NCBI GenBank assembly: GCA_963785045.1
Contig: CAWAUC010000028.1
Coordinates: 4,367-68,366 of the forward strand
Direction: 5' to 3'
From: an uncultured delta proteobacterium
GTDB taxonomy: Bacteria; Desulfobacterota; Desulfobacteria; Desulfobacterales; SpSt-501
DNA: 64,000 nucleotides
How positions within the stretch are numbered: the stretch's first letter is position 1; each line of letters starts with the position of its first letter. Below are positions 5,571 through 26,460 of this stretch, one piece after another. Under the pieces are notes generated by a model, which saw only the letters and a list, made by a program, of their open reading frames with translations, searched no databases and was not told the DNA's origin. A program made the translations under genes and the position numbers.

Positions 5571-6947
5571 CCTGAATTTTGCACGCAACTCACCGCTATG
5601 ATTGGCGGGGAAAAATTTTCTTTCACCCCCGCTGATCGCGAGTGGGAACCCGCAGCCCTTCAGGCGGGGCTATCGCTGGGTATCAAGCAGTCCGAAGTCG
5701 TCTTCAACATATAGATTTTGCGTTCCCTTTTGATCATGCAAGAAAATTCTTGCCTGCACCGGCAGGGCAAAACGCTGAGGCCAGTAGCCGGGGCCAAGCC
5801 AAGGTTTTGTTTGGCCGCGTCGGTTGTCTAAAAAATGGAGAAAGGAAAGCATCCCCTTCGAACAGCACGCACTGCTGGGGTTGCTTCGATGGTGGTTTCT
5901 GCTCCTTTGCAATGCGCATGGCAACAAAACGGCAGACGTGCTCCCAACCGCCTGGCCGATAAAAGCAGCTATTGAATTCAATCACCTTGCGCTTCCAGGG
6001 CCGATACCAGCCGGCTGGGTCAAATACCGGGGTGCATCCCCGGTTTGCGATGATGAAATCAAAACCGGCCGTCATCGCCGCCTGCACACTTTCCCAGGAT
6101 AGGAATTCGCCGTCGGCCCGAAGCAGTACCTCCCGGACGCAGCCGGGCAGATGGTTTTGGATATCGGCAATAAAGGCAGCGGTTTCTTGACCGGAAACGG
6201 TGACGCCTTTTCGCAGTTTGCCGACCAAATACTCACGGGTTTCTTCGATGAAGCCAAGAATCGGCCGAAGGCCCAGCTTGCCGCGGTGCTGGGTATTGTG
6301 GCCCTTGCGGGCGCCCTGCTGGTTGCCAAAAACAGTTTTGACGGTGATGTCGATGTTGATTCGAATCCGGGCGTATTGCAAATCGCACAATTGCCAGACC
6401 CGCTCGCGCAGCATATCGGCTACCTTCAAGACCGATTGGGCCTGATTGATTCCCAGGCTGTCCACGTAACGCCAATAGGTGCTGGCCGCCGGAAGCCGGC
6501 TTACCCTGAAAAAGCCGCAGAGCATCGCGTCCAAGCGAACGTATACGAAATGCCAGATCCGGTTGAACCCGATAAACAGTAGCATCAAAATGCCTGCCAT
6601 CATCCCATAGTGGCCCAGCTTGGGCTGCCGGCAGGGTGCCTGGTAAGCAAAGTGAAAAATTTCCCGAAAGCCACCAGATCGAAAAATTTAATCAACGCCA
6701 AAAGCCCGCCAAATGGGATCAGCTGCTCGCTGCAGGTCTCAAACCCGGTGGAAGCGTTGATTTTTCCGGCCCTTGCGCGATTGGCACAAAATCCTTTACC
6801 ACCGCGGCTTTTCCTGCTAACCTTTTCCCGTCGTTTTACCATCTGGGTATCTCCTGTTATAGCTGTTTAGGTTTGGCCAAACCGTTGCTATGACAGGATC
6901 CCAGATGGTATTTTATTTTTCAACCCTTATGTCGTGCAAAATTCAGG
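5571..6947 (-). mobile_element. IS1380-family insertion sequence, decayed (shortened, frameshifted transposase)
   Basis: Perfect 15-bp terminal inverted repeats cctgaattttgcacg (5571..5585) and cgtgcaaaattcagg (6933..6947) enclose the transposase remnants. The 1377-bp length is shorter than I recall for intact IS1380 members. Confidence 0.7.
5734..6842 (-). pseudogene. IS1380-family DDE transposase, frameshifted near 6600 and C-terminally degraded
   Basis: ORF 6600..6842 (MVKRREKVSRKSRGGKGF...LIPFGGLLALIKFFDLV) and ORF 5734..6603 (...NIDITVKTVFGNQQGARKGHNTQHRGKLGLRPILGFIEETREYLVGKLRKG...) are consecutive parts of one transposase in different frames. Confidence 0.65.
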
Positions 6948-7365: not shown

Positions 7366-8109
7366 CTACGGCAAACTCTGAATCCGTTGGATTCGATCTT
7401 CAGTGCCTGGATGGTTTTCGAGAAAACCTCCGCTCGGGCCCGATGCCTGCAGCAGCCAGGTCAGCGCCCCGCTCATGATCTGTTTGCCGGGGTAGCCCGC
7501 CCGCCTGAGGATGTCCACTCCGTGCGCATCTGCTTCGTACTCCTCGGACCGACTGAAAGGCCGCATCACCCCCAGGTCAGCGATCAGGGGTGTGATGTAC
7601 CCCGACCCGGGGATGACTTGATCGAGGATGATCATGCCGAGGTTCATCCCGGTCCCGAGGGCCTGGGCTTTCGCGACGTGGCCGAGGTCTGCGTGCGCCA
7701 CCTCGTGCGCCAAGACGCCCCGTAATTGATCATCATTGGCCCTTTCCAGAAGACCGCTCGTGACGTAGAATTTTCCGCCGCCGGCATTGGCGGCATTGAT
7801 TTGTTTGTCTTCCAGCACTGTCAGTTGCACCTGACTCAAAGGGATGGGATGGTCCATGTTCTGAAGGAGCGGAATCATCACCCTCTGAATTCGTTCCGCC
7901 TGTTGTGGGTCAATCTGGCGGGTAGCCGAACCTGTCGATTCTGACGGCACCTGCGACGTTCCGCTCGCGCAGCTCACCATGAGACACATCAGACCCGCCG
8001 TCAGAACCATCGGCATCCTCCAGGAACGATGCGACGCGGTCCGGGCCGAAACGAGTCTCTGGTGTATTCCATTTAGTATTGATAGTGGTTCCCCCATGGT
8101 CCCGCTCAT
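7366..8109 (-). CDS. M48-family zinc metallopeptidase, probable lipoprotein
   Basis: HExxH motif HEVAHADLGH with a downstream EEYEADAHG. N-terminal lipobox-like LTAGLMCLMVSCASG. The true start may be an internal Met. Confidence 0.75.
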   Translation of the reverse strand: MSGTMGEPLSILNGIHQRLVSARTASHRSWRMPMVLTAGLMCLMVSCASGTSQVPSESTGSATRQIDPQQAERIQRVMIPLLQNMDHPIPLSQVQLTVLEDKQINAANAGGGKFYVTSGLLERANDDQLRGVLAHEVAHADLGHVAKAQALGTGMNLGMIILDQVIPGSGYITPLIADLGVMRPFSRSEEYEADAHGVDILRRAGYPGKQIMSGALTWLLQASGPSGGFLENHPGTEDRIQRIQSLP

Positions 8110-8210: not shown

Positions 8211-9536
8211 CTACCTCCTTTTCACGAGTTCCTCCTCAATCTCCTTAACCCACGGACTGTTTTCGTCACGCCGCTCACGAGACTCACGTATTAGCCGGAG
8301 ATTCCGAGCGGTCGTCTCAGGTTCCCAGACTTCACGAGACGCCGCAAGGGCATCGCTGAGGGCTCCCGCGGCTTTATCCTCATCTTGAGCAAGCACTGCT
8401 AATTCAAGGAGGGTTGCATAATCCCAGTAGTCGGGTTTCCCTGACGCAATCTTTCTTTCAACGCCGTATGCGATAACAGGGATGAGTTGGTTTCGCCTGG
8501 GATCAGGTGGGTCCTTCAGTTCCATGAGGGTAGCCGCGTTGATGCCGGGGAAAACATCCCGCCAATCCGTTTCAAACCCTTTGAGGTAGGCATCAATCGC
8601 CTTTTCCAGCAGACCCCTGGCCAGTATTTTCTCCCCGCGCTTCACTGCTGCATCCCATCTGTCCTTATAAACCCTGCCGAGAATACCATAGGTCTCGCTG
8701 CTCGGACCGCGTTTGCTCATGAGGTCTAAAAGTATCCTCTCAGCTTCTTCACCCTGGCCAACCCTGTTCAATGACAGGGCGAGTTGCTCTTGTACCATAA
8801 TGGTTGCTGCCAGAGGGGATGACATTTTCTTGACCAGCCCGATCATATCCTGCCATGCTTCCACCGCACGATAGGACAGAAAGAGATCTATGACCACTCC
8901 TCCCTCAACGTCTCCAATGTTTCCAAGCTCATGTTCAATCTGCTTCAGCTCCGCAAGCCCCTTTTTCCTTGCCCCAGTGAGCCGCTGCTTCATGTCCAGG
9001 GAGTAATTGACCTGTTCGCGGAACACGTCGGTCCTGGAATGATCGATCATTGGAACGTTTCTGATAAGGTCGAAGTTATAGATAGGACTGTCCGTGGCCG
9101 CGTTCTTGGCCTCAACGAGGCGCTTCGTCAGAACGGTTTGGACAGTCTCAACGTCCGCTGGTTTTCCGCCAGAGGACAGCCGGTAAGGCACACCCCGCAG
9201 ATTAGCAATGTCGAAAGGCAAGCGACTGTTTTCAGCAAAGAGAAGCACGGTGCTCCACGGCCGGACTGCGTGGCGTATGCCGAGTTCATAGAACACATTG
9301 GCATTCGCCGTGGTCAAGTCCGCAACAGCGTACTCACAAAGCATGAGGCGCTCAAACATGGGCTTGTGGATTATCCCGCCCGTCACCTCCTCGTCGGCGC
9401 GGATCGGCTGAAGACCTGCAGCAGTTATTGAGGGCGCGATGAGTTCTTTGTAAATACCATCAAAATCTATGAAAATCCCAGCAGCGTCAGTCTTTTTCCC
9501 AAAGGGCATAAGAACAAAGCAAAGCGGTTTCATCAT
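8211..9536 (-). CDS. DUF4071 (MAP3K TRAF-binding-like, TPR-rich) protein with N-terminal TIR/deoxyribosyltransferase-like alpha/beta domain
   Basis: ORF 8211..9611 with the start moved to ATGATG at 9536, preceded by ggagagg. The N-terminus reads MMKPLCFVLMPFGKK...YAVADLTTANANVFYELGIRHA. The C-terminal helical repeats include ...SETYGILGRVYKDRWDAA...AIDAYLKGFETDWRDVFPGINAATL. Confidence 0.55.
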   Translation of the reverse strand: MMKPLCFVLMPFGKKTDAAGIFIDFDGIYKELIAPSITAAGLQPIRADEEVTGGIIHKPMFERLMLCEYAVADLTTANANVFYELGIRHAVRPWSTVLLFAENSRLPFDIANLRGVPYRLSSGGKPADVETVQTVLTKRLVEAKNAATDSPIYNFDLIRNVPMIDHSRTDVFREQVNYSLDMKQRLTGARKKGLAELKQIEHELGNIGDVEGGVVIDLFLSYRAVEAWQDMIGLVKKMSSPLAATIMVQEQLALSLNRVGQGEEAERILLDLMSKRGPSSETYGILGRVYKDRWDAAVKRGEKILARGLLEKAIDAYLKGFETDWRDVFPGINAATLMELKDPPDPRRNQLIPVIAYGVERKIASGKPDYWDYATLLELAVLAQDEDKAAGALSDALAASREVWEPETTARNLRLIRESRERRDENSPWVKEIEEELVKRR

Positions 9537-10032
9537 CTTTACCTCTCCAAAAACCCGGCGTGGAAAAAACGGACCTGAATTCAAAACCGTACTCTTCGCC
9601 TTGGTCCTCATTAAAAAAGCAGTTCAGGCTTTAGCACGCTTTGATATGTCCGTATTCGCAACCCAGCTCAGAATAGGTTCATTATACAAGCACATGCCAT
9701 ATCTCGGATGCGTATGCGGCAAAGCCTGTTTTTTCCCTGATGTTAGATAGTTACATATGAGATGTAGATTATCACTTTATCTCCCATGTCAAGACCTTTG
9801 TCATAGACCGAGACCCTGGATCCCATTGAGGACGCCCAGATAGGAGCCGCGCCGGCCCTTGAGTGTCGAAAGCTGGCTGCAACACCTGGTTTTTAAGTTT
9901 ATATTGCTGATCTCGAACATTCGGGTTATCTTAGGAAACATAATGAAGGCTTGAGAGTGGCAACAGTTTGTTTATCGGGAGTAGGGGCGATCAGCCCCTG
10001 TATAATCGCACGCGCAGAAACATCCGGCAGAC

Positions 10033-12033
10033 ATGAACGCAATCAGCGCAACGGCCTCCCCCGGCACGGTCTGCAAATACAGAGGGTTTATCTCCTACAG
10101 CCACGCGGCGGATGATCTCTTGGCCCCGGAGCTGCAATCAGGCCTGCATCGATTCGCCAAGCCTTGGTATCGGCTGCGGGCCATGCGCGTATTTCGTGAC
10201 AAGACGGGGCTCGCCGTGACGCCGGAGTTGTGGGGATCGATTGAGAAGGCGTTGGCAGATGCGGATTACTTTCTCCTATTGGCTTCGCCGCAGGCCGCGC
10301 AATCGAAATGGGTTGAGCAGGAAGTCGATTGGTGGCTGCGAAACCGTTCGGCCAGTCATCTGCTGATTGTCTGGACTGACGGCGAGTTAATCTGGGACCG
10401 AACGGCGGGGGATTTCGACTGGACCAAGACAACCGCCCTGCCCCGACGCCTGGTGAAAGTTTTCCAGGAGGAACCAAACTATCTCGATCTGCGGTTCGCC
10501 AAAACCACCGAGCACCTTTCGCTGCGTCAGCCGAAATTTCTCGAAGCCATCGCCAGTTTGTCCGCCACGCTGCGAGGCCGCTCACTTGATGAAATCATCG
10601 GCGAAGATATCCGTCAGCACCGAAAAACGATGCGCTGGCTTCGTTTCGCCGTGGCGGGATTGGCGGGGCTGATGATCGCGGCGGGGTATGCCGCGTTCGT
10701 GGCCCGGCAGGCGTCGTTCACGGCAGGCCACCTGGCAGAGGATATCGAGAATGCGGCAAAAAAGCAGCGACGGGAATCGATCTCTCACGACGTAGCGGAC
10801 AGGTCGCTGGCGGTGCTCGAGACCGATCGTGAATTGGCCATCCTGTTAGCGATTGAAGCGGCCAGAATTTATCCCACCGCCAAAGCGCATAGCGCCCTGC
10901 GTCAGTCGTTGTTCGAGACCTTGCCGCCCGAATTAAGCTTGCCGGGCCACGCCGGGGGTAGCTACTTCGCCGGGTTCATGCCGGATGGCCAGCGGGTGAT
11001 CACGGGCGGCGCGGACAACGTGGCCCGCGTTTGGGAATTGCCCAGCGGCAAAATGGCGCTCGAACTGCGCGGCCATGTCGGCGGCGTCACGGGCGCCGAC
11101 GTTTCGCCCGATGGAAAGCGCATATGTACGACCAGCCGGTACGACGAGACCGCTCGGGTATGGGACGCGGATAGCGGGGCGGGTTTGTTTGAGATCAAAC
11201 AGAAGGGGTTGACCGCCGCCCAGTTCAGCCCGAGTGGCAAGCAGATCCTGACGGTAGCGGAGCAGGCAGACGCGGTGCTGTGGGATGCCGCATCCGGCCA
11301 GCGCTTGCATCCGTTGGCCAGCCCTTACGCACAGATGCGGAAAGCGAGCCGGCTCTATTGTGCCAGATTCAGCCCCGATGGCAAGCGTGTGGCATTAGTG
11401 GATTGGCACCCCGCTGTGAGCGATGTCGCGACAGGGAAGGCTCTTTTTGAGTTGGAGGGGCATACCGCGCAAGTTCTCGACATCGGCTACAGTCCGGACG
11501 GCCAGTGGGTCGTCACCGCCAGCGAAGATCGCACCGCCCGGATCTGGCGGGCGACTACAGGGAAAAGCATCGCCGTGTTGCCGCACGACGCAGAAGTCAT
11601 ATGGGCGACATTCAGCCCCGAAGGCCAGTGGATCGTAACCTGCACCTCGGGGGACAGGCGGATTCACGTTTGGGACGCCGTCAGCTATAAGAAAGTCGCC
11701 GAGATAGATTCCCAGTCAGATGAAATCGCATTCAGTCCGGATGGGGCCTTTCTGGTCACCACGTCGGACGAGGTCCCCGCCGAGGTCTTCGAAACCAGGA
11801 CCGGGGCCCGGGTGGCTGAGTTGACCGGCCACACGGGGCCGGTCCGTTCGCCGGGGTTCAGTCCCAATGGGCGGCGCGTCGTCACAGCAGGACTCGATGG
11901 CAAGGTGGATCTGTACGCTTTCAACCTCGGCGGGACGACGACGCAGTTGATCGCTCTCGCGCGTGAGCGGGTGAAGCGCCAATTGACGCCGGAGGAACGC
12001 ACGCGCTATTTGCCGCCTCCCTTCCCACAATAG
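10033..12033 (+). CDS. TIR domain - single TM helix - WD40 beta-propeller protein
   Basis: N-terminal TIR (YRGFISYSHAADD ... SKWVEQEVDWW, conserved Glu present). TM helix LRFAVAGLAGLMIAAGYAAFVA. It then has at least 7 WD-like blades (GHAGGSYFAGFMPDGQRVITGGADNVARVWE, GHVGGVTGADVSPDGKRICTTS.., GHTAQVLDIGYSPDGQWVVTASEDRTARIW, GHTGPVRSPGFSPNGRRVVTAGLDGKVDLY). Confidence 0.85.
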   Translation: MNAISATASPGTVCKYRGFISYSHAADDLLAPELQSGLHRFAKPWYRLRAMRVFRDKTGLAVTPELWGSIEKALADADYFLLLASPQAAQSKWVEQEVDWWLRNRSASHLLIVWTDGELIWDRTAGDFDWTKTTALPRRLVKVFQEEPNYLDLRFAKTTEHLSLRQPKFLEAIASLSATLRGRSLDEIIGEDIRQHRKTMRWLRFAVAGLAGLMIAAGYAAFVARQASFTAGHLAEDIENAAKKQRRESISHDVADRSLAVLETDRELAILLAIEAARIYPTAKAHSALRQSLFETLPPELSLPGHAGGSYFAGFMPDGQRVITGGADNVARVWELPSGKMALELRGHVGGVTGADVSPDGKRICTTSRYDETARVWDADSGAGLFEIKQKGLTAAQFSPSGKQILTVAEQADAVLWDAASGQRLHPLASPYAQMRKASRLYCARFSPDGKRVALVDWHPAVSDVATGKALFELEGHTAQVLDIGYSPDGQWVVTASEDRTARIWRATTGKSIAVLPHDAEVIWATFSPEGQWIVTCTSGDRRIHVWDAVSYKKVAEIDSQSDEIAFSPDGAFLVTTSDEVPAEVFETRTGARVAELTGHTGPVRSPGFSPNGRRVVTAGLDGKVDLYAFNLGGTTTQLIALARERVKRQLTPEERTRYLPPPFPQ

Positions 12034-12216: not shown

Positions 12217-12241
12217 AAAAACCCTGCAGCAAGCTGCAGGG
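12217..12241 (-). terminator. Rho-independent terminator closing the SLATT-TIR-STAND operon
   Basis: On the minus strand ccctgcag-cttg-ctgcaggg (perfect 8-bp stem, 12222..12241) is followed by ttttt (12217..12221). It lies 50 nt downstream of the stop at 12291. Confidence 0.7.
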
Positions 12242-12290: not shown

Positions 12291-13253
12291 TTACCCAGCG
12301 CCATTTCGCAAATGAGACTCTTTCAACCGTATCGACACGACTCCGATGGGTGGAATCTCTCCCTTCAGCTCGACCGGCAGATTTCTCTCCGGGTCGATGA
12401 AAAACGAAATCTTGTCTAAAAAACCCATAAACGAAAAATGTTCCACCTGTTCCAAATTCGACTCCAATGGCTTGGCTTCGAGATTAATCTGGAAGGCTTT
12501 GATCTGGCCTTGCCTGTGGTTCTCGCCCTGCTCATTTTTTTCAATATAGTCGACTTTTAAATTCTGCAATCCGGCCGATCGCAGCTTGACCTGAAACAAC
12601 TGCCTTTTTCCAAACACGCACAAGGATAGTGGCTGGTCGTTGTCCAACATTTCAGAAGCGGACGCGATGTAAGTCATCAACAGCCGATCGGTGACGTTGG
12701 GACATCCCAATTTGTCGGTGTCATAAGGATAGAACCGGTCGATAACCTTGGTCCACTGACTGGGTTGCTTCGATGCCTCTTTCTTGTCTTTGGGTTCGCG
12801 CTGGAATCGGAAGACTCCCTGCCGGGTGAATCGGTAGACCTTTTTGAAGTCGTCTTCACCCTGCCTTAAACTATCCCGTCCCAATGCGGTTGCATCCCGT
12901 GGGTCGAACCAAAGATGATCCACGGATTCAACGGGCGATTGAAGAATCGAGTCGATGATCGTGGTGACGGTAAACTTATAGCATCCGCTGGCGGGGACTC
13001 GAACCGGATCTCCTTGGCGGCTCTCGATCATCGCCGCCTCAGCTTCAGACTGGGTCGGGAATTCCAGGCGGATTTCGGTGGTGACATCAACTGATATGCT
13101 TTTAACCTCGAATACCAGATACCTCCATTGGATTCTCTTGGCGTCGAGATTGAGACGGGTATAGGGTTGAGCCAAAATCGCCCCGGGGAAAACAACCATC
13201 CGGCTGATGATCGACAACAAGATCAGCAATATCGATAAATTGTATTTTCGCAT
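12291..13253 (-). CDS. Exported protein of unknown function (weak DUF3108-like impression)
   Basis: ORF 12291..13286. The likely start is Met at 13253 (MRKYNLSILLILLSIISRMVVFPGAILAQP signal peptide). It is the last gene of the operon, and no motif was recognised. Confidence 0.55.
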   Translation of the reverse strand: MRKYNLSILLILLSIISRMVVFPGAILAQPYTRLNLDAKRIQWRYLVFEVKSISVDVTTEIRLEFPTQSEAEAAMIESRQGDPVRVPASGCYKFTVTTIIDSILQSPVESVDHLWFDPRDATALGRDSLRQGEDDFKKVYRFTRQGVFRFQREPKDKKEASKQPSQWTKVIDRFYPYDTDKLGCPNVTDRLLMTYIASASEMLDNDQPLSLCVFGKRQLFQVKLRSAGLQNLKVDYIEKNEQGENHRQGQIKAFQINLEAKPLESNLEQVEHFSFMGFLDKISFFIDPERNLPVELKGEIPPIGVVSIRLKESHLRNGAG

Positions 13254-13305
13254 GTCCGGTGCCTCCAGAGGAAGTGCTTGAATCATGAAAGGAAGGTTCG
13301 ACCCA

Positions 13306-15960
13306 TTATTCGCAGATGTCCTTCTTGCCGATGTTGTAAGGCGTGGTCATGTCGTGCCAGGGATCGGAAGGTTTGGCAAAAAGCTCTTTTTTTATTTTCT
13401 GAAGTTCTGCTTTGATGGTTTCGTCCATCTCGGCTCGGAACAAAGATTTTACACTTGCCAGATCTTGGATCGGTAGATCTGAAACACCACGCAGGTTGGC
13501 ACATCTCAAATCCGCGCCTTTTAGATTCGCATCTTTGAAATCGGAACGTTGAAGATCCGCGAAGCCCATTTGGGCTCCCTCAAGATCCGCCCCGGTGAAG
13601 TTGACGCCCGCCAGGCTGGCCTCGCGAATATCAGCACCCCGGAAATTGGCATTCCTCGAATCAGCCCCGTTCAGCTTGGCTCCACGGAGATCGGCGCGTT
13701 CAAAATCTGCTTCTCTCAGCCGTGCGCCAACCAAATCGGCGTTGCGCAAATTCGCGTTCACCATAAAGGAGCGAAACAGGTCGGCATACCGTAGATCCGC
13801 CTTCTTCAGGAAAGCACCTTTAACCGATTTTAAACGATCGCTTTTCGAGGCAATACACCAATAATTCTCCGGTAACTGCGAAACATTTGTTTCCCTGAAG
13901 TCAAAGAACAGATCGTAGCCAAGTCTATCAAATATCCATGGGACTATTGCATGGGGATTCAACGATGCAGTCAATTGCCGCGCCGGAGTCCCGATGAAGG
14001 CCCCAAAAGAAATGGACCAGAAAACCAAGGCAATCAATGGGACGAAACCGGCTTCCGCAGGCTTCACGCTTCGCCAAACTGTCCGCAATCCTTCATCTTT
14101 TTCTTGTCCGACCAAACGATGGAAAAGCATCACCAAGCCGAATGTGAGCATGATAAAAATAATATGCAAACCCGTGACTGCCCAATCACGGCGCGGTAAG
14201 TACCGCACCCAAAATCCAACAACCGTGACCGGTACGGTGAACCATGCGAGGGAATACATGCCCGCTTGTTCAAGCCTGTCCATCAGGGATCGTCCATCCG
14301 AGGATTTGACTGGCTGATGGGCAAGCATCACTAAGAGACGTTGCAAGTAAAAAAGAAAGTATGCGTAAACGCTGCATAAGAGCAGCGGCAGCACCAAATA
14401 AATCTGATCGCCGGGCATCTTGGTTCCGATGATCGGCAGAGAAACCGAATTGGTTGCTAGCGACACATCATCGGTTGCTGCAATCGTTAGCCAGGAATAG
14501 ATGCAGAAATACACACAGACAAGAAGCGAGGCAACAAAATACCGGTTCGTTTTTTGTTTTCTTACACTTTTTTCCAAAAAACCAATGGCCAGCTTAAATT
14601 TGGGATGATAGCGGGCGGCCCATTCGGCATTGGGCTGTTGCTGGCTTTGCCAATCCAGGGCCACCTGGAGGTCGGCTTCGCGGTAAAAACCCGCTTTACC
14701 GCTGGCGTGAAGCTCCGCGCTCTCCGCCAACCGTTTATAAACCCGGGCGGACTCTGCCTCCTCATCCACCCAGGCAGCCAGGGACTTCCACTGCCGGATG
14801 AGGCTTTCATGGGAAATATCCAGCAACCGGTTCTCAGTGGATGCCCCGGTGGAAAGCACTAGGAAGTTGCGGTTGTCTGCATTGAAGCGTTTGATCAAGG
14901 CCATGACCGTGTCCGGCGTTTCCTTTCTTCCGCACACCGCCGCTATTTCATAAAGACTGGCAGGTCGACGGATGCGGCGGTTTGAAGCATCCGTCTCCGT
15001 TAGGGCCTGAAACATTCGCTTGGCCATCATGAGGCTTTGGTCACTCAGGCCAATCAGCGCTTCGTCTGCATGGATGCTTAGTGCATGTTGAATAGTTCCC
15101 GCCATTTCGTAGTGTTCGAGATCGATGGGACCCTTGGGGTTCTTGGCCTGCATGCTGTAAGTCCGCATCAGCACGTGCTGAAGCACCGGAAGATCATCGC
15201 GGCTGTCGATGTTTTCATTTAACAGCCGGTCCGTCAACCTCGGAGTGATGTCCGCCCGGGCAAGTCGAATAGGTCCCAGGATTGCTTCCCGGCGCTGGTG
15301 GCGAGTGAGACGTGGCACCAGAAATTGGCTGGCATTCATGGCTTCCGGCAGGCCTTGGAAGGCGTCGCATTCACCCAGAAAATCCGAGCGCATGGTCAGC
15401 ACAACGTAAACGGGGATAACCGTTTGGACGGCCAGGCTCAGGAGCATGGAAACGAAATCGGCTGCTTCCTCACGCACCTCGGTCGTCCTAATCTGCTGGA
15501 AGCGAAACAACTCCTCGAACTGGTCCACAACAAGGAGCAGATTGCTCTCGGTTGTGTCCAGGGCCGGTTGGACCTGATGGACCAACGCTTGCGAGCCCTG
15601 CCGCCTGATCCTTGCCAGCAAGCCATTGATAGCTACAGCGGCATCGCTGGCCCCACTCACCGAGACCATGGCTGTGGCGAGGTTCCGAAGGGGAGAATCA
15701 CCGGGCTTGAAAATGGCGATTTTCCATAGATCCAGATCCTGGACCAGAAAGCCGGCTTCCAGGTTGGGAATGAGCCCTGCACGTACCAGCGAGGACTTGC
15801 CGGATCCGGAGCTTCCCACCACGGCCACAAATCGATGTGCATTCAATTGGTCCAAAAGGGCCCGGGTCTGCTGCTTTCGCCCGAAGTAGTAGAGACTGTC
15901 GGCGCTTTCGAAGGGTCTAAGGCCGACAAATGGATTGAGTCCGGCGAGGTGGTTATTCAT
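13306..15960 (-). CDS. STAND-class P-loop NTPase with multi-pass TM region and C-terminal pentapeptide repeats
   Basis: N-terminal NPFVGLRPFESADSLYYFGRKQQTRALLDQL. Walker A VVGSSGSGKSS at 15793..15816 and Walker B LLLVVDQFEELF. About 5 hydrophobic helices are present (YFVASLLVCVYFCIYSWLTIAA, IYLVLPLLLCSVYAYFLFYL, GMYSLAWFTVPVTVVGFWV, VTGLHIIFIMLTFGLVMLF, GFVPLIALVFWSISFGAFI). These are followed by A(D/N)LxxA(D/N)L repeats (ADLRYADL...NANLRNADLVGARLREADFERADLRGAKLNGADSRNANFRGADIREASLAGVNFTGADLEGAQ). Confidence 0.85.
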   Translation of the reverse strand: MNNHLAGLNPFVGLRPFESADSLYYFGRKQQTRALLDQLNAHRFVAVVGSSGSGKSSLVRAGLIPNLEAGFLVQDLDLWKIAIFKPGDSPLRNLATAMVSVSGASDAAVAINGLLARIRRQGSQALVHQVQPALDTTESNLLLVVDQFEELFRFQQIRTTEVREEAADFVSMLLSLAVQTVIPVYVVLTMRSDFLGECDAFQGLPEAMNASQFLVPRLTRHQRREAILGPIRLARADITPRLTDRLLNENIDSRDDLPVLQHVLMRTYSMQAKNPKGPIDLEHYEMAGTIQHALSIHADEALIGLSDQSLMMAKRMFQALTETDASNRRIRRPASLYEIAAVCGRKETPDTVMALIKRFNADNRNFLVLSTGASTENRLLDISHESLIRQWKSLAAWVDEEAESARVYKRLAESAELHASGKAGFYREADLQVALDWQSQQQPNAEWAARYHPKFKLAIGFLEKSVRKQKTNRYFVASLLVCVYFCIYSWLTIAATDDVSLATNSVSLPIIGTKMPGDQIYLVLPLLLCSVYAYFLFYLQRLLVMLAHQPVKSSDGRSLMDRLEQAGMYSLAWFTVPVTVVGFWVRYLPRRDWAVTGLHIIFIMLTFGLVMLFHRLVGQEKDEGLRTVWRSVKPAEAGFVPLIALVFWSISFGAFIGTPARQLTASLNPHAIVPWIFDRLGYDLFFDFRETNVSQLPENYWCIASKSDRLKSVKGAFLKKADLRYADLFRSFMVNANLRNADLVGARLREADFERADLRGAKLNGADSRNANFRGADIREASLAGVNFTGADLEGAQMGFADLQRSDFKDANLKGADLRCANLRGVSDLPIQDLASVKSLFRAEMDETIKAELQKIKKELFAKPSDPWHDMTTPYNIGKKDICE

Positions 15961-17486
15961 CGCGCCGCACCAGCCGATAGGAGTCTATCGGTGAGCTCAG
16001 GATCGATACTTTCGGAGCGGCTATTGTCCAAGATGTCAATGTGAATCAGAGGTGGGAAAACCGGGAGGTCGGATCTCTCACCACTGGGTGGCGCCACAAA
16101 TACCCAGATGTATTCAAGGACCGATCGGTCCTCGGATTCGAATTGCTCGGAAATTGCTTTGAAGGCCTTCTTGATTCGCCCCACCACCCAAGCCGTACCA
16201 ACTTTGCCGGAAACCAGTATCAGGTTTTTAACCTGCTTTACGGACTGCTCGAATTTGGCGAGGCTGATAGATGGATCCTGGGATTCTTGGTTGAAATCCA
16301 CATCCACTCCTTTACCTGAGAGGAAGTCCGCGAGCTGGAATGCGAATCTCTGATCCTTCTGATGTGTGTCGATGAGATAGCTCGGATTTCTGGTCGAATC
16401 CGGTGTCGATTCCCGGCAGCGGGCAATTCGCTCTAAGACCAGGTTTATGAAATCAGCCTGCAGGCACTTTACCAATTCATACTGAGCCAGCTCCCTTGGC
16501 CTGTCTTGGCAATTTTTGAGAAATTGGCGCTGCGGGATGTCTTCAACAGCCTCGATGTCGAGGTCAGGGGGCACCCACACCAACTGCGGGATTCTTTTAC
16601 CGAAAGCTATTTCGTGCTGTTCACGGGGATAGGTTGTCTCTTTGCGGTCCAGAATTTTTCGGCCTGGCCACCGATCCAGCAAGTGAATGGAAAAGTTGGC
16701 CTCAGCCAGTGCCCGGTTTGAAGCATCGGAATGCCCGGCAGCATCCATGGGGGGAGGGATGCTGGTCAAGATCTCCAGGCCGTGGTTATGTACCTCGCCA
16801 GCGATTCGTTCCTTGAAATCCTGAAGGGTGTCGGCCACATCCGCCATGAAAATGACGAGACGGTCGGCTCGATGTCCGTCTTCTGCTTTCGGGAGGGAAG
16901 CAGAAGCCTTTTGCTGAACGACGAATTCGACCGAATCCACGATCGATCGCATTTGCTTTTCAAACGAATTGTCGTTCGGTGAGGTGAACTCCCCAAGATG
17001 TTCGTCGTCACCTGCGTCGTTCATGCGGAATCCGGCAGCACCCTGAAGCTCTGCGGGCCATTGCGTATGGGGAATATTATGAAGCAGGATGTTGAGGATT
17101 CGATATGCTTCACCTACGCGCAACCCTCCGGGGCGTTGCCCGTGATATTGGTGAAACCAACTCATCTCCTTGCGACAATAATCCGACTGCAGATAGTTAC
17201 GAGAGGTTAAGGCGAAGAAAAGGGCGGATGTTTTAAGAGCATTTTGGATGGCATCGTCAAAGAGGGTATTCCCCTGCATCCTTCTGGTGTCGCGCCATAT
17301 TTTGAGGTTGGCCATCCCTCGGCGCTTTCGAAGCCAGTTGTCCAGGGATTGGTCAAAAATGTCCACCCAGCCCGGGCGATTCCAGAGGCCCACGTTGTCA
17401 TTATGGGAATAGCTGATGAAGATGTCGTTTTCGTAGCCGGGTATCTGAGCCATCACCGCCGTCCTTTTCAGAAGACTAGTCGGCAC
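15957..17486 (-). CDS. TIR-domain protein with uncharacterised ~300-aa C-terminal region
   Basis: DIFISYSHNDN ... ALFFALTSRNYLQSDYCRKEMSWF (TIR with the conserved Glu). The C-terminal part contains a second TIR/flavodoxin-like stretch (SYLIDTHQKDQRFAFQLADFLSGKGVDV...NLILVSGK). The stop overlaps the NTPase start as ATGA (15957..15960). An alternative start is Met at 17453. Confidence 0.8.
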   Translation of the reverse strand: MPTSLLKRTAVMAQIPGYENDIFISYSHNDNVGLWNRPGWVDIFDQSLDNWLRKRRGMANLKIWRDTRRMQGNTLFDDAIQNALKTSALFFALTSRNYLQSDYCRKEMSWFHQYHGQRPGGLRVGEAYRILNILLHNIPHTQWPAELQGAAGFRMNDAGDDEHLGEFTSPNDNSFEKQMRSIVDSVEFVVQQKASASLPKAEDGHRADRLVIFMADVADTLQDFKERIAGEVHNHGLEILTSIPPPMDAAGHSDASNRALAEANFSIHLLDRWPGRKILDRKETTYPREQHEIAFGKRIPQLVWVPPDLDIEAVEDIPQRQFLKNCQDRPRELAQYELVKCLQADFINLVLERIARCRESTPDSTRNPSYLIDTHQKDQRFAFQLADFLSGKGVDVDFNQESQDPSISLAKFEQSVKQVKNLILVSGKVGTAWVVGRIKKAFKAISEQFESEDRSVLEYIWVFVAPPSGERSDLPVFPPLIHIDILDNSRSESIDPELTDRLLSAGAAR

Positions 17487-17678
17487 TGTATGAAACTGTC
17501 CGGCCTGCTATAGATGCGCAGCACCTGCCTTGAGCGAATTTCATTTGGATTCGTGCGGATAACCCGTCGGGCCCCTGTGTGTTCTGATAAATCGCTCTAC
17601 CTTCATAAGCCATTAGAAACAATTAGTAATCCACAATCCCTGATTGTAAAGGGTGTCTTACGCGTTGCTCAATGGGCT

Positions 17679-18131
17679 TTACGACGAAGCGTCGGACGGC
17701 CGAGGGCTGTCGGAAGACTTGAGCCCGGTTGCTTCCCCCCACTTCGCGTTTTCAACGCCAAGAATGTTCTCGACCCGGGTGACCAGAACCTGAAAGCGGT
17801 CCTCGGAGTTGAAAGGCGGGGCCTGGGTCAGGAAAAGGAACTTCTCGCGCTTGAGGCTCTCGGAAGTCATACGGTATTCGACTGAGTTCTCCTGCAAGCG
17901 ATAGAGGGACAATAGGCCCCCGATGGCGGCTACCGCCACGCCCATGGCTCCCGCGGCCACCTTGATCGCAGCGTGGGCGTCGGCGTAGCCGACCAGGAAT
18001 GCGATGGCGCAGCCCAGTATGATCTCAACGGCACGGAGTTTCTTGAACCAGCGCTGATTCCACCCGCTTTTGTCGTTCAACCACCGAATCTGAACCTCAA
18101 CCCGCTCTTTCAGGTATTCATCGGCGTTCAT
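17679..18131 (-). CDS. SLATT/DUF4231-like two-TM protein
   Basis: 150 aa. YLKERVEVQIRWLNDKSGWNQRWFKKLRAVEIILGCAIAFLVGY is followed by a second helix (AAGAMGVAVAAIGGLLSLY) and a cytosolic tail (YRMTSESLKREKFLFLTQAPPF). The RBS is gaaggaggtcaggaATG. Confidence 0.7.
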   Translation of the reverse strand: MNADEYLKERVEVQIRWLNDKSGWNQRWFKKLRAVEIILGCAIAFLVGYADAHAAIKVAAGAMGVAVAAIGGLLSLYRLQENSVEYRMTSESLKREKFLFLTQAPPFNSEDRFQVLVTRVENILGVENAKWGEATGLKSSDSPRPSDASS

Positions 18132-18379: not shown

Positions 18380-18505
18380 TCAGCTTTGGTTTACAGCTTT
18401 AATTTGATTTTCAGTCAGAACGGCGCAACTTGAACTAATGGTGATTGTGACAAATAACAAAAAGAGCTGAGCGAAATTGTTCCGCAACCTTGGTGAAGCC
18501 GACAT
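18380..18505 (-). CDS. Possible 41-aa small membrane/lipoprotein-like ORF
   Basis: MSASPRLRNNFAQLFLLFVTITISSSCAVLTENQIKAVNQS is preceded by the strong RBS gaggagtatcgcATG. It overlaps the 3' tail of the PLD reading frame in another frame, so only one of the two readings can be real. Confidence 0.25.
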   Translation of the reverse strand: MSASPRLRNNFAQLFLLFVTITISSSCAVLTENQIKAVNQS

Positions 18506-20342
18506 GCGATACTCCTCATTAGGGTTTCGAAAGGTTCGGTGGCTTGTTTCAGCACAAATCCAATTCCCTTGGTCAGCGCTTTTGCAAGATGGTCGTTGCT
18601 GAGGGACAGGCGATCCCATCTAATCGCCGTAGAAATCACTCCACGGGATTGTCTGCCAAGCAGGCGCGCCTCGGCGTTTTCTTGCCGGCGGCAGCCAGCG
18701 GAAGTCACGACGGGCATGGCCCTCTCCGCGGTGGCCTTCTGGTGGGCACGGCTATTCCAGTCGTACAGAAAGATCTTCTCGAAGTACTGCGCGATGCCGG
18801 GATGGTACATGATCAAGCCGGCGTCGCGATTGAACTGCACGCCGTCGCCGGACCAGTTCTGGCTGCTGACGACCACGACCTTCGAGTCGACAATGATGCC
18901 CTTGTTGTGGCAGCCCTTGAGCAGCTTGATCTTGTCCGTATCGAATCCTTTGTTCTTCAGTGCTTCAAGCATCTTGCGTGTGTCGCCGTCGCGCAAAATG
19001 ATCTTAACGTCCACGCCGTGCTTGATGCGGTCGACCATGGCGTCCACCAGTTTGTCGAGCACGCCGCCGTTGGGACCGTAGTTGATGTACTGGTTCTGGA
19101 AGAACAGAGTTTTCTTGGCCGACTTCACCAGCGGGATGATGAAGTCGCCGTAGTTGTCGGGCGTCAAGAGCGGCTGGATGCGTACCTTGGCCGCCTTGAG
19201 CACAAGCGGCGCAAAGATCTGCACCGGCGTCGGCGCCGCCCGCGTCACCGCCATGGGGCTCCGGCGGCAGGAGCAAGTCGGGTTCCGTCGGCTGCAGGGG
19301 CGGCCCGCCGCGCTTCTGCACGCGCGCTGCCTCGGTCATGTCCCATTGGATGTACTTCTCAAACATCTTTGCCAGGTCCGGATGCTCCACGATCACGTGC
19401 CATTCGCGGTTGTGCTCGGCGAGCAGCTTGCGCTGCTTGTTCACGCTCAGCTTCGAGGCGTCGGCGTCGGGCTGGTTAGAGCCTTGCCAGTTGCCACTGG
19501 AGATCCAGAAGGCCTTGCTGTCGCGGACGGCGACCTTGATGTGGTAGGCATTGGGGTACAGGTTGCCGACGGCGGCCTTGGCAATCTCGCAGCGTTTCTT
19601 GAAAGCCGCTTCCAGATCGGCCATGATGTCCGCCTCCGTCATCTCGCCGGCCCGGGCGGTCGAAGCCTTGGGGTCATAGCAAATATCGAGCTCGCCTTGG
19701 GCTGCGTCCATGGCGTCCTTGAGGGCGCTGTAAATGTGCGTGGCGGTGAAGTCGTACATCGCAAAGGTGAAGTGATTCTTGATGCCGTCAATGAACTCGT
19801 ACAACTTCGGCCAGCCGGCATCGGGACTTGCGTGGCAGATCAGGTTGACCGTGTCGTTGACCTCCTTGAGTTGCAATTTCGGCGGCTTGCGGTAGTTCTT
19901 GTTGTTGGCGCCGACTCCACGCACGGCGCCACGCGTCGTGGGGACCCTCCGCGTGAGCGACGCCGGGCAGGTAAAACTCCGGTACCGGCGGAGCGGCTGG
20001 AGCGCCACGCGTCCTGCGGGCCAGGTGTCGCAGTTGCTCTGCGGGGGTCGCCGGGGCGATGTCCGTTGGGATGCCGTCGATCTCGGCCGGGATGCGTTCC
20101 TTGGGCTTGAGCTCGCCCGGCGACAGCTTGCGCAGCACGGTCACGACAATCGCGGGCTGGTCGGTGATCCAGCCGCCGGTGAACTTGAAGCCCGGCCGGA
20201 TCTCGATCACGTTGGGCATCGCCAGCAACTTCTTGCCGTGCCGGGTGATCGCGGAGCGCACGCCGGCAAATGCCACCTTGGCGGCGGGATGCTGATCGAA
20301 ATGCGATGAATGAGGATGCGCGGGTTTCTTTGCTTTGGCCAT
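18415..20342 (-). pseudogene. Phospholipase-D superfamily protein with two HKD motifs, reading frame broken twice (near 19960 and 19255)
   Basis: Three overlapping ORFs in three frames form one protein. The first is 20342.. (MAKAKKPAHPHSS..., RBS ggagaaatcATG). The second is the 19004..20008 frame (..LICHASPDAGWPKLYEF..YHIKVAVRDSKAFWISSGNWQGSN, HKD-1). The third is the 18415..19254 frame (..GCHNKGIIVDSKVVVVSSQNWSGDG, HKD-2). Sequences turn Arg/Ala-rich nonsense after each junction. Confidence 0.55.
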
Positions 20343-21827: not shown

Positions 21828-22046
21828 GATAGGTGCTCGGTGAAGGCCTGGCACATCTGCAGCACGGTCATTTTGCTTGCCGAGAGGGAAAGCGCTGGAG
21901 TTGCTGCGCGCTTTTTCAACCGGTAATATTTTCTGCGCTCAATGACCGCCTCTTCGATTTCCACCCCGTAAGCCAGCCGGATCTCGTCGACCAACCTCAG
22001 CACAGTTTGTTTAGAGCACCCCAGCATCCGTGACAGGTCTGTCAAG
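21828..22046 (-). pseudogene. Fragment (HTH region only) of a WYL-type transcriptional regulator, paralogous to 62495..63589
   Basis: GLTDLSRMLGCSKQTVLRLVDEIRLAYGVEIEEAVIERRKYYRLKKRAATPALSLSASKMTVLQMCQAFTEHL aligns with SLTDLARMLGCSKQTVLRLVDDIRRAYGVEIEESIQGQRKYFKLKKRVATPVLSLSPSEITVLQMCKAFTEHL of the 62.5-kb gene. Similarity is lost on both sides. Confidence 0.7.
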
Positions 22047-22089
22047 CCTGATCCGATCGAAAGCCTCCCACGATACCGGAAGTTCAAAG

Positions 22090-22515
22090 CTACTTCCGCT
22101 CCCAAAGGGTGACTTTGGCCTTCTTTGCGGCGGCTCTCAAGGTCGCATCAAGGGTTGCCAGCGCTATCCCGTTTCGCATGGCCAGGTGCAGATAGGATGC
22201 ATCGTAGCTGGTGAGGCTGTATTGGCGGGCGATCGGCAAAATACCGGCCATCAGTCCCTCGGCGGGAGGCGGCAGTTCGACCTGGATGGGAAGCTGGCTC
22301 AGCAGGGCAATGAAGCGCAGGCTGTCTGCTTCGGTGAGACGCTTTCTGCGTTCCGCCGCAAGCAGCACATTGACCACTTCAAGAGGCCAAATGGGCGGCA
22401 CCGCGGCCGATGCCACGGAGAGGCTTTCAAGGACCCGATCGGCATAGGCGTTGGACTCGTCCCTGAAACACCAGGCCATCACCACGGAGTTGTCGACGAC
22501 GAATCGTTGGGCCAT
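22090..22515 (-). CDS. vapC: Type II toxin VapC (PIN-domain ribonuclease)
   Basis: 141 aa. FVVDNSVVMAWCF..E...A ... LTSYDASYLHLAMRNGIALATLD is the classic PIN acidic-residue pattern. It lies immediately downstream of the antitoxin gene. Confidence 0.85.
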   Translation of the reverse strand: MAQRFVVDNSVVMAWCFRDESNAYADRVLESLSVASAAVPPIWPLEVVNVLLAAERRKRLTEADSLRFIALLSQLPIQVELPPPAEGLMAGILPIARQYSLTSYDASYLHLAMRNGIALATLDATLRAAAKKAKVTLWERK

Positions 22516-22755
22516 TCAGCGCCGCCCCTCTTCGATCAACTCGCGGATGCTCACTTCCCCAAGACTGTGCTGTTCCCTGAACTCCCTTATTTCCGCAATC
22601 ACGGCGGAGGGATCGCTTTTTTCGGTGCTTTCAGGCTGCTGCAGAACGGCGATGGCCGTTCCATGCTTGGTGATGACGATTCGTTCCCCTTTGCTGATCT
22701 GGTCCAGCAACCGCGACAAATGCGTCTTGGCTTCATATGCCCCGACTGTCTTCAT
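22516..22755 (-). CDS. Type II antitoxin, Phd/YefM-like (VapB partner)
   Basis: 79 aa. MKTVGAYEAKTHLSRLLDQISKGERIVITKHGTAIAVLQ is a typical Phd/YefM N-terminal fold sequence. Confidence 0.8.
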   Translation of the reverse strand: MKTVGAYEAKTHLSRLLDQISKGERIVITKHGTAIAVLQQPESTEKSDPSAVIAEIREFREQHSLGEVSIRELIEEGRR

Positions 22756-22767
22756 GCAGCCACCTCA

Positions 22768-22792
22768 ATAGACTAGTTCGAGACTAGTCTAT
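22768..22792. promoter_or_regulatory. Candidate operator of the vapBC promoter (10-bp perfect inverted repeat)
   Basis: atagactagt (22768..22777) - tcgag - actagtctat (22783..22792), 13 nt upstream of the antitoxin start codon. Confidence 0.5.
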
Positions 22793-22844
22793 ACACATAT
22801 ATCGCTCCTGTCAAGCGGCGCGTCCTTGGTGTATCAAGGCTTCC

Positions 22845-23170
22845 TCACGAGGCGATCCGCAGGGTGTCTATAAGGGGCGTTTGATTGACGTAGGGAATGA
22901 TGAGCCGATAGCGTGCGCGGGTGATGCCGACGTAGACCAAGTTGAGGATCTGCTCCTCGGTCCGGCCCGTGGGCGTGAAGTAACCCAGGCCCGGCCAAAA
23001 GACGACCGCGTAGTTTATCCCTTTGGCGCTGGGGATGGTCGCGACGGAAACCCGGTCGGTGGTGTGATGTCGTAGGCTTTCCTGGACCGGTAGCTCTCCG
23101 ACATCAACTGGCTGAGAGGAGGCCTTCTGCCGAAAAGTTTGACCAAGGACGTGGTTGTGGAGAGCATATT
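22845..23170 (-). pseudogene. C-terminal remnant of a UvrD/PcrA-like (SF1) helicase
   Basis: Hand translation of the minus strand gives ...RHHTTDRVSVATIPSAKGINYAVVFWPGLGYFTPTGRTEEQILNLVYVGITRARYRLIIPYVNQTPLIDTLRIAS*. The SAKG..(F/V)V(F) and VYVGITRAR motifs are those of helicase motifs V-VI. There is no start codon and a stop lies about 105 codons upstream. Confidence 0.6.
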
Positions 23171-23499
23171 TTCAAAATCGGCCAAGCAGTCAGGCTGCCA
23201 TGTAGGGGCATTCCGGAGCGTTGGCCGAATTTCACAAAAGCGATCGCTCGAGCACGATCAGTTGCTCTATTCGATCCTGCAGATGGAAGTTTTTACCGAT
23301 CATTATCTATGTGGGATGTTCGGGCTGGGTGTCTCGGTGATGAACTGAAGAGCAGGGATTTTCAAAGCTCAATTTCAGCAACACAAATCACTGCAGCGCA
23401 AATTCGGCCATTAAAATTGACAATCTAGATTTGCAGCAAGATCCCCATATAATCAATAATCGATATTGGACCCCTTTCTTTTCTTCATGTTGGGGACAC

Positions 23500-24735: not shown

Positions 24736-24743
24736 GACCTTTT

Positions 24744-26402: not shown

Positions 26403-26460
26403 TAATCTTTATAACCTAACGGCGTCCCTTTTATTTCCAAAACTTATTTTCTTACCAGCG
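26337..26460 (-). repeat. Dispersed repeat copy E (upstream-flank part only; same subfamily as copy D)
   Basis: cacccgcagcatcgattcgagatcgccttggcagtcgactctatttccacttccgaccctcacc..ctttataacctaacggcgtcccttttatttcc..cttaccagcg aligns with 42160..42282. Confidence 0.75.

Follow-up and report, generated by a model that had tools for sequence, protein, structure and literature searches.

Avs (AVAST) proteins, bNACHT proteins with a TIR domain and plant TIR-NLRs couple a TIR effector to a STAND NTPase and a C-terminal repeat sensor; variable sensors, a constant core and paralogous arrays are further traits that they share with the family considered here. As far as we know, those Avs and bNACHT proteins that have been characterised are cytosolic, and the bacterial STAND and NLR-like immune proteins characterised to date sense phage proteins in the cytosol. 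Thoeris consists of a TIR protein and an effector encoded in a short operon, with no STAND partner, and the combination of TIR with SLATT has been validated as Thoeris type VII, working with the canonical cyclic ADP-ribose (cADPR) signal (Yirmiya et al., bioRxiv 10.64898/2025.12.03.692087). The accessible text of Kaur et al. (2021, PMC8195603) defines nSTAND1 in predicted conflict systems with FGS, bDLD3 and EAD partners, and that of Kaur et al. (2020, PMC7159879) predicts SLATT proteins beside TIR-type enzymes as nucleotide-gated pores. Here we analyse a locus of four minus-strand genes, 12291..18131, in a 64,000-nucleotide (nt) stretch of contig CAWAUC010000028.1 from an uncultured member of the Desulfobacterales (the full stretch is called the window throughout). 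The genes encode, in order, a SLATT protein, a TIR protein, an nSTAND1 NTPase and an exported protein, henceforth G4. In a first-pass annotation all four open reading frames (ORFs) had been placed and their domains called correctly (SLATT, TIR, STAND NTPase with pentapeptide repeats, signal-peptide protein), as is borne out by Pfam and NCBIfam matches and by the signal peptide seen in G4; the four had then been read together as one tight operon and one conserved unit. Comparison across genomes leads to a smaller unit, in which the TIR and nSTAND1 genes alone are constant, SLATT and G4 are optional, lineage-specific additions, and the idea of one obligate four-gene operon is largely refuted by synteny. 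We understand the locus, with somewhat better than even confidence, as a split, membrane-anchored NLR-like TIR immune or conflict module whose pentapeptide/G4 sensor is lineage-specific and whose SLATT output is optional.

The evidence for the two-gene core comes from a genome scan seeded on the TIR protein, taking one genome per species and searching six-frame ORFs with profiles of the window proteins. It returned 80 loci (L-numbers denote related loci from other genomes or metagenomes) from Desulfobacterales, SAR324, Methylococcales and other Gammaproteobacteria, many Bacteroidota, Acidobacteriota, Calditrichia, KSB1, Gemmatimonadales and one cyanobacterium; at least 9 lineages carry the TIR-nSTAND1 pair. 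An nSTAND1 gene directly follows the TIR gene in 70 of the 80 loci, with a 4-nt overlap in 40, and the other 10 involve contig ends (L022, L056, L068, L072, L076, L079, L080), fragmented genes (L062, L081) or an 800-nt gap (L084). Single-gene fusions of TIR and nSTAND1 occur in L013 and L060 and in the proteins P0251, P0253, P0359 and P0371 (P-numbers denote proteins matching a profile of D2-D3, the two C-terminal domains of the TIR protein), P0251 being a 1773-amino-acid (aa) TIR-D2D3-nSTAND1-WD40 polypeptide. No third gene is common to the 80 loci, and clusters of flanking ORFs are lineage-restricted, with at most 6 loci each. Since TIR and nSTAND1 are constant and a shared third gene is absent, the conserved system is the pair: a three-domain TIR protein of about 500 aa and an nSTAND1 NTPase, encoded by two translationally coupled genes in many phyla. 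The synteny of this pair, part of the four-gene co-occurrence expected from the first-pass annotation, thus holds widely, whereas the full set of four, in the same order, is seen in L004 and recurs only in the close relatives L004/L005 (G4 83% and TIR 87% identical to the window); L007 has no SLATT and L006 has it on the opposite strand.

Set against the described systems, the pair is distinct in several respects. Unlike Avs and bNACHT, it belongs to the nSTAND1 clade and drew no PADLOC Avs match; its effector, which carries two extra domains, is encoded separately and only occasionally fused; and its NTPase is membrane-anchored, with a sensor predicted to be extracytoplasmic. With Thoeris VII (ThsB TIR plus ThsH SLATT) the window locus shares a TIR gene beside a gene for a SLATT protein with two transmembrane (TM) segments, whereas its TIR protein is STAND-partnered and has two extra domains, and SLATT is rare in the family and lies 225 nt off; SLATT is near 5 of 80 pairs, as against nSTAND1 directly after TIR in 70 of 80, so that TIR and SLATT do not form a conserved dedicated unit. 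The systems of Kaur et al. (PMC7159879, PMC8195603) have in common with it the NTPase clade, TIR among the effectors and variable lectin-like or repeat sensors; the TIR-D2D3 partner, the universal TM anchor, the pentapeptide-TM sensor and G4 are not in their descriptions, as far as the accessible text of the two papers extends. WD40 and FGE-like sensors are described in a survey from 2026 that covers 589 STAND clades, and a keyword search of its accessible portion found neither membrane-anchored forms nor separately encoded effectors. Neither the TIR-D2D3 plus nSTAND1-TM pair nor its pentapeptide variant nor G4 is described in the papers that our literature search found. Among the typed systems of PADLOC-DB 2.0.0, a library from 2023, none was matched, in agreement with the first-pass annotation, which had recognised no named system: the TIR protein gave a weak ThsB/TIR match (1.5e-5), the NTPase a P-loop-only match to mad3/mad8 (aa 27-61), and SLATT and G4 gave none. 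By analogy only, Toll-like receptors also connect a repeat sensor on the outside, across the membrane, to a TIR output in the cytoplasm; their sensor and membrane parts are not homologous to those found here, where a STAND NTPase stands in between and the TIR is probably an NAD-cleaving enzyme (NADase).

The TIR ORF (15957..17486, minus strand) matches TIR_2 at 1.1e-10 over aa 22-113, with a score of 42.5 bits against a cutoff of 28. Its homologues are 496-506 aa long and start with MAQIPGY, which makes the ATG at 17453 the probable start and the protein 498 aa long. The TIR domain comprises aa 1-185 (16899..17453, minus strand), and in a Foldseek search it retrieved the TIR domains of RUN1, MyD88, SARM1 and SPARTA with probability 1.0 and E values of 1e-3 to 3e-2. 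The conserved TIR glutamate noted at first pass is E96, in the motif YCRKE; it is invariant among 26 homologues, down to 40% identity, and its position in the motif, rather than superposition, marks it as the candidate equivalent of the catalytic Glu. We accordingly predict that this TIR is probably an NADase rather than a scaffold. The AlphaFold2 (AF2) model (mean predicted local distance difference test (pLDDT) score 79.7) has three alpha/beta domains, namely the TIR domain, D2 (aa ~198-348, 16410..16862, minus strand; block pLDDT mostly 76-93) and D3 (aa ~358-498, 15960..16382, minus strand), the last made of beta-alpha repeats, weakly TIR-like and bearing an invariant DTHQKDQ motif. Conservation extends over the whole ~500 aa, not the TIR domain alone, in at least 326 clusters at 90% identity. 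A D2-D3 profile run against 1.84 billion representative proteins yielded, at E<=1e-3, 1718 clusters at 50% identity. Among the 150 matches listed, most are ~490-520 aa long with D2-D3 from about aa 200, many others are shorter and probably partial, and 7 of the 10 atypical matches scanned have a TIR domain. D2-D3 thus appears to be almost confined to the TIR-nSTAND1 pairing, and given this co-occurrence with nSTAND1 we read it as the part that probably docks the TIR protein onto the NTPase. Neither hhalign nor Pfam gave a family match for D2, and a sequence-profile search of the PDB with the C-terminal half of the TIR protein gave no significant match (best E 0.31). Internal duplication of the TIR domain was considered as the origin of D2 and D3 and rejected, with hhalign probabilities below 1% for D1, D2 and D3 against each other; weak TIR_2 matches appear in D3 of 6 of 14 members (best 0.0081), and the relative P0275 shows one weak DUF4062 match at the start of D2.

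The NTPase gene (884 aa, 13306..15960, minus strand) contains an nSTAND1 module at aa 10-418 (14707..15933, minus strand), which scores 315.4 bits against a cutoff of 27.1 for PF20703 (E 1e-93) and 3e-8 for AAA_16. Its Walker A motif, GSSGSGKS (aa 49-56), lies exactly at 15793..15816 as first annotated, and Walker B, LLLVVDQFEE, is present in the translation. What the first-pass annotation overlooked is the family-wide membrane anchoring with a probable outward sensor, together with the source of the pentapeptide module. All 54 NTPase C-terminal regions examined contain a strongly hydrophobic 19-residue window (Kyte-Doolittle 1.7-3.35) located 40-150 aa past the NTPase module. In 51 members, nearly all single-helix, the 15 residues flanking the helix hold on average 6.9 Lys/Arg before it and 3.1 after it; the N side has the higher count in 49 members, the counts tie in 2, and in none is the C side ahead. 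Because the ATPase must be cytoplasmic, this charge bias predicts that the C-terminal domains lie outside the cytoplasm. The TM anchor is universal among the NTPases examined, and as far as the charge pattern tells, the variable sensor is probably extracytoplasmic. The 54 ectodomains include 27 with WD40, one Lcl_C (L020) and three with pentapeptides, the remainder being without assignment. Culturable Bacteroidota with a WD40-type pair include Arenibacter (L016), Aequorivita (L049, L063) and Ilyomonas (L042).

The window NTPase departs from the single-helix plan. Its membrane module (13993..14538, minus strand) has helices at aa 475-493, 520-538, 567-585 (weaker), 595-613 and 638-656, with Kyte-Doolittle peaks in that order of 2.08, 2.00, 1.39, 2.31 and 2.07; of the about five TM helices annotated at first, four are strongly hydrophobic and the fifth is weaker, so that a strict hydrophobicity threshold leaves only four. 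Across homologues, Lys/Arg is abundant in loops 2 and 4, and loop 2 of the free-standing relatives has an RRHHK..RR insertion. The model favoured by this pattern has five TM helices and places the pentapeptide end outside. The pentapeptide-repeat array covers aa ~712-830 (13471..13827, minus strand) in three stretches (9.2e-27; 92.7 bits against a cutoff of 20.2); a conserved tail, PWHDMTTPYN..KKDICE, comes after it and reaches to the stop at 13306. Two Cys residues of this C-terminal domain are conserved, in DLRCA and in the tail (KKDICE).

The origin of the pentapeptide end is suggested by the distribution of G4, which is restricted to Desulfobacterales. A metagenome scan seeded on G4 gave 42 loci with at least 1 kb of upstream sequence. 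In type A (8 of 42; G4 63-83% identical to the window) the order is TIR, NTPase and G4 on one strand; in type B (3 of 42; 55-56%) G4 diverges from an inverted pair, with the TIR gene proximal to it. In type C (6 of 42, one of them a remnant; 46-54%) G4 is divergent from a gene of ~606-634 aa for a pentapeptide-TM-pentapeptide protein, with neither STAND nor TIR. The remaining 25 loci (44-54%) show no TM-pentapeptide neighbour, and 9 of them adjoin a soluble protein of ~470-510 aa in a sulfotransferase context, as in L002/L003. The type C proteins are homologous to the TM bundle, C-terminal repeats and tail of the window NTPase (aa ~465-884), and stand-alone pentapeptide-TM-pentapeptide proteins of L110, L135, L141, L146 and L154 are homologous to its pentapeptide C-terminus. 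Those of L110, L135 and L146 have the TM bundle, array and tail in common with the window NTPase, and likewise an adjacent G4 homologue, and differ in having an N-terminal pentapeptide domain where the window protein has nSTAND1 and in lacking a TIR partner. We infer that, in a Desulfobacterales lineage, the TM-pentapeptide module was grafted from a G4-linked membrane protein onto nSTAND1, where a five-TM bundle and a pentapeptide beta-helix took the place of the usual single TM plus WD40 propeller. As the module is homologous to G4-linked proteins, G4 is read as its facultative partner: a probable recurrent associate of the TM-pentapeptide module, dispensable in cis and predicted to be periplasmic.

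Distances to the pair are short where G4 is present. Among all 12 window-clade loci with enough flank, G4 is separated from it by -4 to 107 nt, and at the NTPase/G4 junction there is a 4-nt overlap in L007 and a 6-nt gap in L089. Presence of G4 beside the window-type 884-aa NTPase was scored in six TIR-seeded loci, L008, L009, L010 and the three added loci L168, L169 and L170, which were used in place of a census seeded on the TM-pentapeptide module (the TM module alone, as a protein-search query, returned 5 fragments); G4 was found in L009 and L010 and not in the other four. In L010 and L008 the pair is followed by a gene for 325 aa, which was tried as a diverged G4 and rejected (G4 profile E 0.16, no match); judged by eye from its sequence, it resembles an alpha-E-type protein.

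Pentapeptide-multiTM-pentapeptide genes divergent from G4 lie on the minus strand at L110 81..1901, L135 3836..5668, L146 62..1966 and L154 1..1665, and together with G4 they form a possible two-gene envelope module of sediment Desulfobacterota. In L001, where TIR and NTPase genes are absent, a G4 homologue is directly preceded by a 69-aa ORF (9743..9952) that matches the NTPase's pentapeptide C-terminus (9e-31) and appears to be a decayed remnant of the pair. The assembly ERZ25039600 holds both a stand-alone G4 (L002, contig_22338) and a G4-less TIR-NTPase(TM-pentapeptide) pair (L170, contig_18992); if it represents one genome, G4 may act in trans.

G4 itself (320 aa, 12291..13253, minus strand) has a signal peptide ending ...ILA/QPY and two invariant Cys residues, C184 and C212. 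It matched no Pfam (E<=0.01) or NCBIfam model, and its 137 homologues are without any Pfam domain. The AF2 model is all-beta (pLDDT 89.5, predicted TM-score (pTM) 0.84), and its best fold match in the PDB is 6NTR, the DUF1849 protein EipB of Brucella (E 1.8e-4, probability 1.0, TM-score 0.41-0.53, root-mean-square deviation 6.5-7.6 Å). Assignment to DUF1849 or DUF3108 by sequence was rejected, since Pfam gave no match even at E<=1 in 36 members. On this best match, G4 is tentatively modelled as an EipB/DUF1849-like periplasmic beta-barrel. Secretion and, as far as the match goes, an all-beta, open-barrel-like fold may link the two proteins, and G4 has a conserved Cys pair; a sequence-level relation is absent and the TM-score is only 0.41-0.53. 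The function of EipB is known only loosely.

SLATT is the second accessory. The window protein (150 aa, 17679..18131, minus strand; SLATT_1/DUF4231, two-TM) is recognised by Pfam and NCBIfam models (DUF4231 2.8e-17, 63.5 bits against 24.7; Pfam SLATT_1 1.4e-13; NCBIfam SLATT_1 6.7e-32, 110.2 bits against a cutoff of 41), its two hydrophobic stretches are VEIILGCAIAFLVGY and AAGAMGVAVAAIGGLLSLY, and its gene is preceded by the ribosome-binding site GAAGGAGG. With an iterated SLATT profile, a SLATT-like gene was located in the window, in L004 and in L006 and, at a distance of at most 4 kb, beside about 6% of the pairs (5 of 80): on the same strand 128-141 nt upstream in L052 and L061, divergent and 118 nt upstream in L070, and farther off in L047 (1.4 kb) and L037 (3.9 kb). 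Its recurrence in unrelated phyla suggests that the association is real but optional. SLATT is accordingly considered an accessory and a probable pore-forming output, and the validation of Thoeris VII makes this a plausible output route where SLATT is present. A TIR protein without SLATT is most simply predicted to be an NAD+-depleting effector.

The layout of the window locus is consistent with this division into core and accessories. The TIR stop and NTPase start overlap as ATGA (4 nt, 15957..15960), and G4 starts 52 nt after the NTPase stop, with GGAGG 8 nt before its ATG, both as first annotated. At 12222..12241 (minus strand), 50 nt past the G4 stop, there is a terminator-like hairpin with an 8-bp stem of 6 G-C pairs followed by TTTTT, which fits the terminator that had been proposed to close the unit; in the scan overall, terminator-like sites were no commoner than in shuffled sequence. 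The tight operon proposed at first pass therefore stands as regards co-orientation, the TIR/NTPase overlap and the short NTPase-G4 gap, and does not extend to SLATT. Between the SLATT stop and the TIR ATG at 17453 lies a spacer of 225 nt (17454..17678, minus strand), inside which is a promoter-like sigma-70 site, TTGAGC-18-TACAAT (17672..17643). The spacer is 87% identical to that of L004, a conservation no higher than that of coding DNA, and a search for a regulatory RNA in it gave no Rfam match.

From this architecture we infer an enzymology, a direction of signalling, a trigger and an immune role as follows. An envelope or periplasmic cue, such as phage adsorption or injection or envelope damage, would be sensed by the pentapeptide domain with or without G4, the latter serving as a facultative co-sensor or ligand presenter for the pentapeptide module. 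The TM bundle would relay the signal inward, nSTAND1 would bind ATP and oligomerise, and the bound TIR proteins would thereby be gathered to cleave NAD+. Depletion of NAD+ would result and, where SLATT is present, a TIR-made ADP-ribose-type signal could open the two-TM pore as in Thoeris VII; cell arrest or death would be the outcome. In a more specific and tentative proposal, which we consider rather doubtful, the pairs are outside-in receptors, whose periplasmic sensor would detect envelope attack before or without cytoplasmic entry and whose STAND switch would fire the cytoplasmic TIR.

Several findings weigh against the split, membrane-anchored module. The topology of the window protein hinges on one weak helix (Kyte-Doolittle 1.39), and loop 3 (PRRD) breaks the positive-inside rule; a protein with four TM helices and a cytoplasmic pentapeptide end could thus be an alternative. 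G4 loci lack a TM-pentapeptide neighbour in 25 of 42 cases, and G4 is not within 6-10 kb in L008, L168, L169 and L170, which have the same 884-aa NTPase type. The 225 nt between SLATT and TIR leave room for a possible promoter of its own, and D2 and D3 give no assignable function in sequence searches. As to an immune role, only about 8 of 94 neighbouring ORFs family-wide are of conflict type (TIR, TPR-S, patatin), the rest being mostly ordinary, and the defence-island signal is therefore weak; L168-L170 lie amid housekeeping genes, PADLOC gives weak TIR and P-loop matches only and, among the neighbours, mostly generic DEAD-box helicases. Phage or prophage carriage was looked for, and viral contigs carry none of the pairs. 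Defence-island enrichment of the TIR-nSTAND1 family, tried as a supporting argument, is consequently set aside as weak.

The same observations bear on the rival explanations. It could be supposed that G4 is a resident envelope gene beside which the pair landed, with no role in the system, and that the pentapeptide end is cytoplasmic behind four TM helices and acts as a cytosolic sensor or DNA mimic. The G4 homologues that stand alone in 25 of 42 loci, the conserved sulfotransferase context of L002 and L003, the relation of types A and B as a simple inversion of the pair beside a fixed G4, the absence of G4 from 4 of 6 TIR-seeded loci and the count of four helices at the strict threshold would all fit. 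A landing site leaves unexplained, however, the 6 type C loci in which G4 is paired with the TM-pentapeptide module without TIR or STAND, and the gaps of -4 to 107 nt in all 12 window-clade loci with flank, the Lys/Arg-rich loops 2 and 4, the conserved C-terminal Cys pair and the family rule of a C-out sensor likewise speak against it; we consider it unlikely, with an appreciable chance of being right. A different objection concerns purpose: the pair might not be anti-phage at all and serve instead as an envelope-stress, cell-cell or kin-recognition, or regulated cell-death device, as proposed for STAND systems of social bacteria. The sensors are, after all, predicted to lie outside, PG_binding_1 and M15 peptidase genes occur as neighbours, the flanks are often housekeeping genes, and the accessible text of PMC8195603 defines nSTAND1 in predicted conflict or apoptosis-like systems of multicellular prokaryotes. 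The conserved TIR Glu, the occasional SLATT, the tandem pairs (L040, L051, L079) and the fast sensor swapping are, in contrast, typical of immune receptors, and further TIR and PLD (phospholipase D) genes share the island of the window locus; we judge this explanation improbable on balance.

Two further readings draw the unit differently. That SLATT, TIR, NTPase and exported protein are obligate components of one system in a tight operon, the model of the first-pass annotation, agrees with the co-orientation of the genes, the one terminator after G4 and the order repeated in L004; yet L004 and L005 are only close relatives, L007 is without SLATT and L006 has it on the other strand, SLATT is near few of the pairs, G4 is missing in L008 and L168-L170, a shared third gene does not exist and the 225-nt gap contains a promoter-like site, all of which makes this model very unlikely. 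Alternatively, the locus would be a Thoeris VII in which TIR makes cADPR and SLATT kills, with NTPase and G4 as unrelated neighbours. TIR and SLATT are adjacent on the same strand, type VII is validated and PADLOC gave the weak ThsB match (1.5e-5); against this, every informative locus couples the TIR family to nSTAND1, in some cases by fusion, SLATT accompanies only ~6% of pairs and the 4-nt overlap joins TIR to the NTPase, not to SLATT. We regard this reading as highly improbable. The split, membrane-anchored TIR-nSTAND1 module with its lineage-specific sensor remains the explanation that we prefer.

The genomic surroundings add further observations. The locus lies in a variable island with other conflict genes. 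This stretch, at ~5.7-27 kb in the window between TamB/Omp85-family genes and a TRAP transporter gene, includes PLD-family ORFs and a transposase fragment besides the genes of a TIR-like TPR-S protein and a TIR-TM-WD40 protein; L006 and L007 have integrases at their flanks. On the left the island's edge is marked by a TamB-like gene (1430..3394), Omp85/POTRA (3375..5525), a DDE transposase fragment (5734..6603) and an M48 peptidase (7366..8109). The minus-strand ORF at 8211..9611 encodes 466 aa that begin with a TIR-like part (PADLOC effector TIR 4.4e-8) and include MAP3K_TRAF_bd (1.3e-51) and TPR-S; homologues of this protein are found near TIR-nSTAND1 pairs in L007, L044 (9e-105) and L023 (5e-81), in the last of these directly upstream. 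Convergent to G4, at 10033..12033 on the plus strand, a 666-aa TIR-TM-WD40 protein is encoded, at a position that is conserved in L004 and L005. Its 5 Lys/Arg before the TM and 1 after it suggest a cytoplasmic TIR and an outside WD40, and similarity of the WD40 part extends to the sensors of WD40-type nSTAND1 partners elsewhere (4e-172 to L058). The protein looks like a STAND-less version of the outside-in architecture. Upstream of SLATT, the minus-strand ORFs 18415..19254 and 19004..20008 overlap in different frames, with one PLDc_2 each and weak DrmC/NucT-like matches, and are probably a single PLD-family gene with two HKD motifs, split by a frameshift or sequencing error. The window ORFs at 22030..27528 gave no Pfam match.

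Across the family, tandem paralogous TIR-nSTAND1 pairs or NTPase-only copies occur in L040 (4547..14251), L051 (5594..11342), L079 (5765..10480), L084 and L086, as expected of diversifying receptor arrays. In Flavobacteriaceae a same-strand gene for ~400 aa follows 64-90 nt after the pair (L021 13695..14906, L025 6671..7876, L027 13783..15003); the L021 product has a PG_binding_1 domain and those of L025 and L027 cluster with it. This neighbour and the NTPase ectodomain of L020 (5438..6262), a lectin-like Lcl_C, hint at cell-envelope ligands. In Chitinophagaceae (L032, L038, L039, L041, L042, L045) a same-strand gene for 470-900 aa lies 60-106 nt upstream of TIR; the L039 product, tested against Pfam, gave no domain, and the gene may be another lineage-specific accessory.

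Lastly, the analysis advises caution in equating co-oriented neighbours with one system, the core here being two of the four flagged genes. It also provides an apparently natural case of a sensor-module swap, from WD40 to a pentapeptide-TM module that is seen as well beside an accessory periplasmic protein. The pairs constitute a widespread family in which a membrane-anchored STAND protein, with a sensor that apparently faces the periplasm, is combined with a separate, dedicated three-domain TIR effector, and if this is true, they would be a case of envelope-level threat sensing tied to TIR/NAD+ chemistry. Should the outside-in proposal hold as well, the family would unite TLR-like and NLR-like logic in bacterial receptors whose ectodomains, whether WD40, lectin-like or pentapeptide plus G4, can be exchanged.

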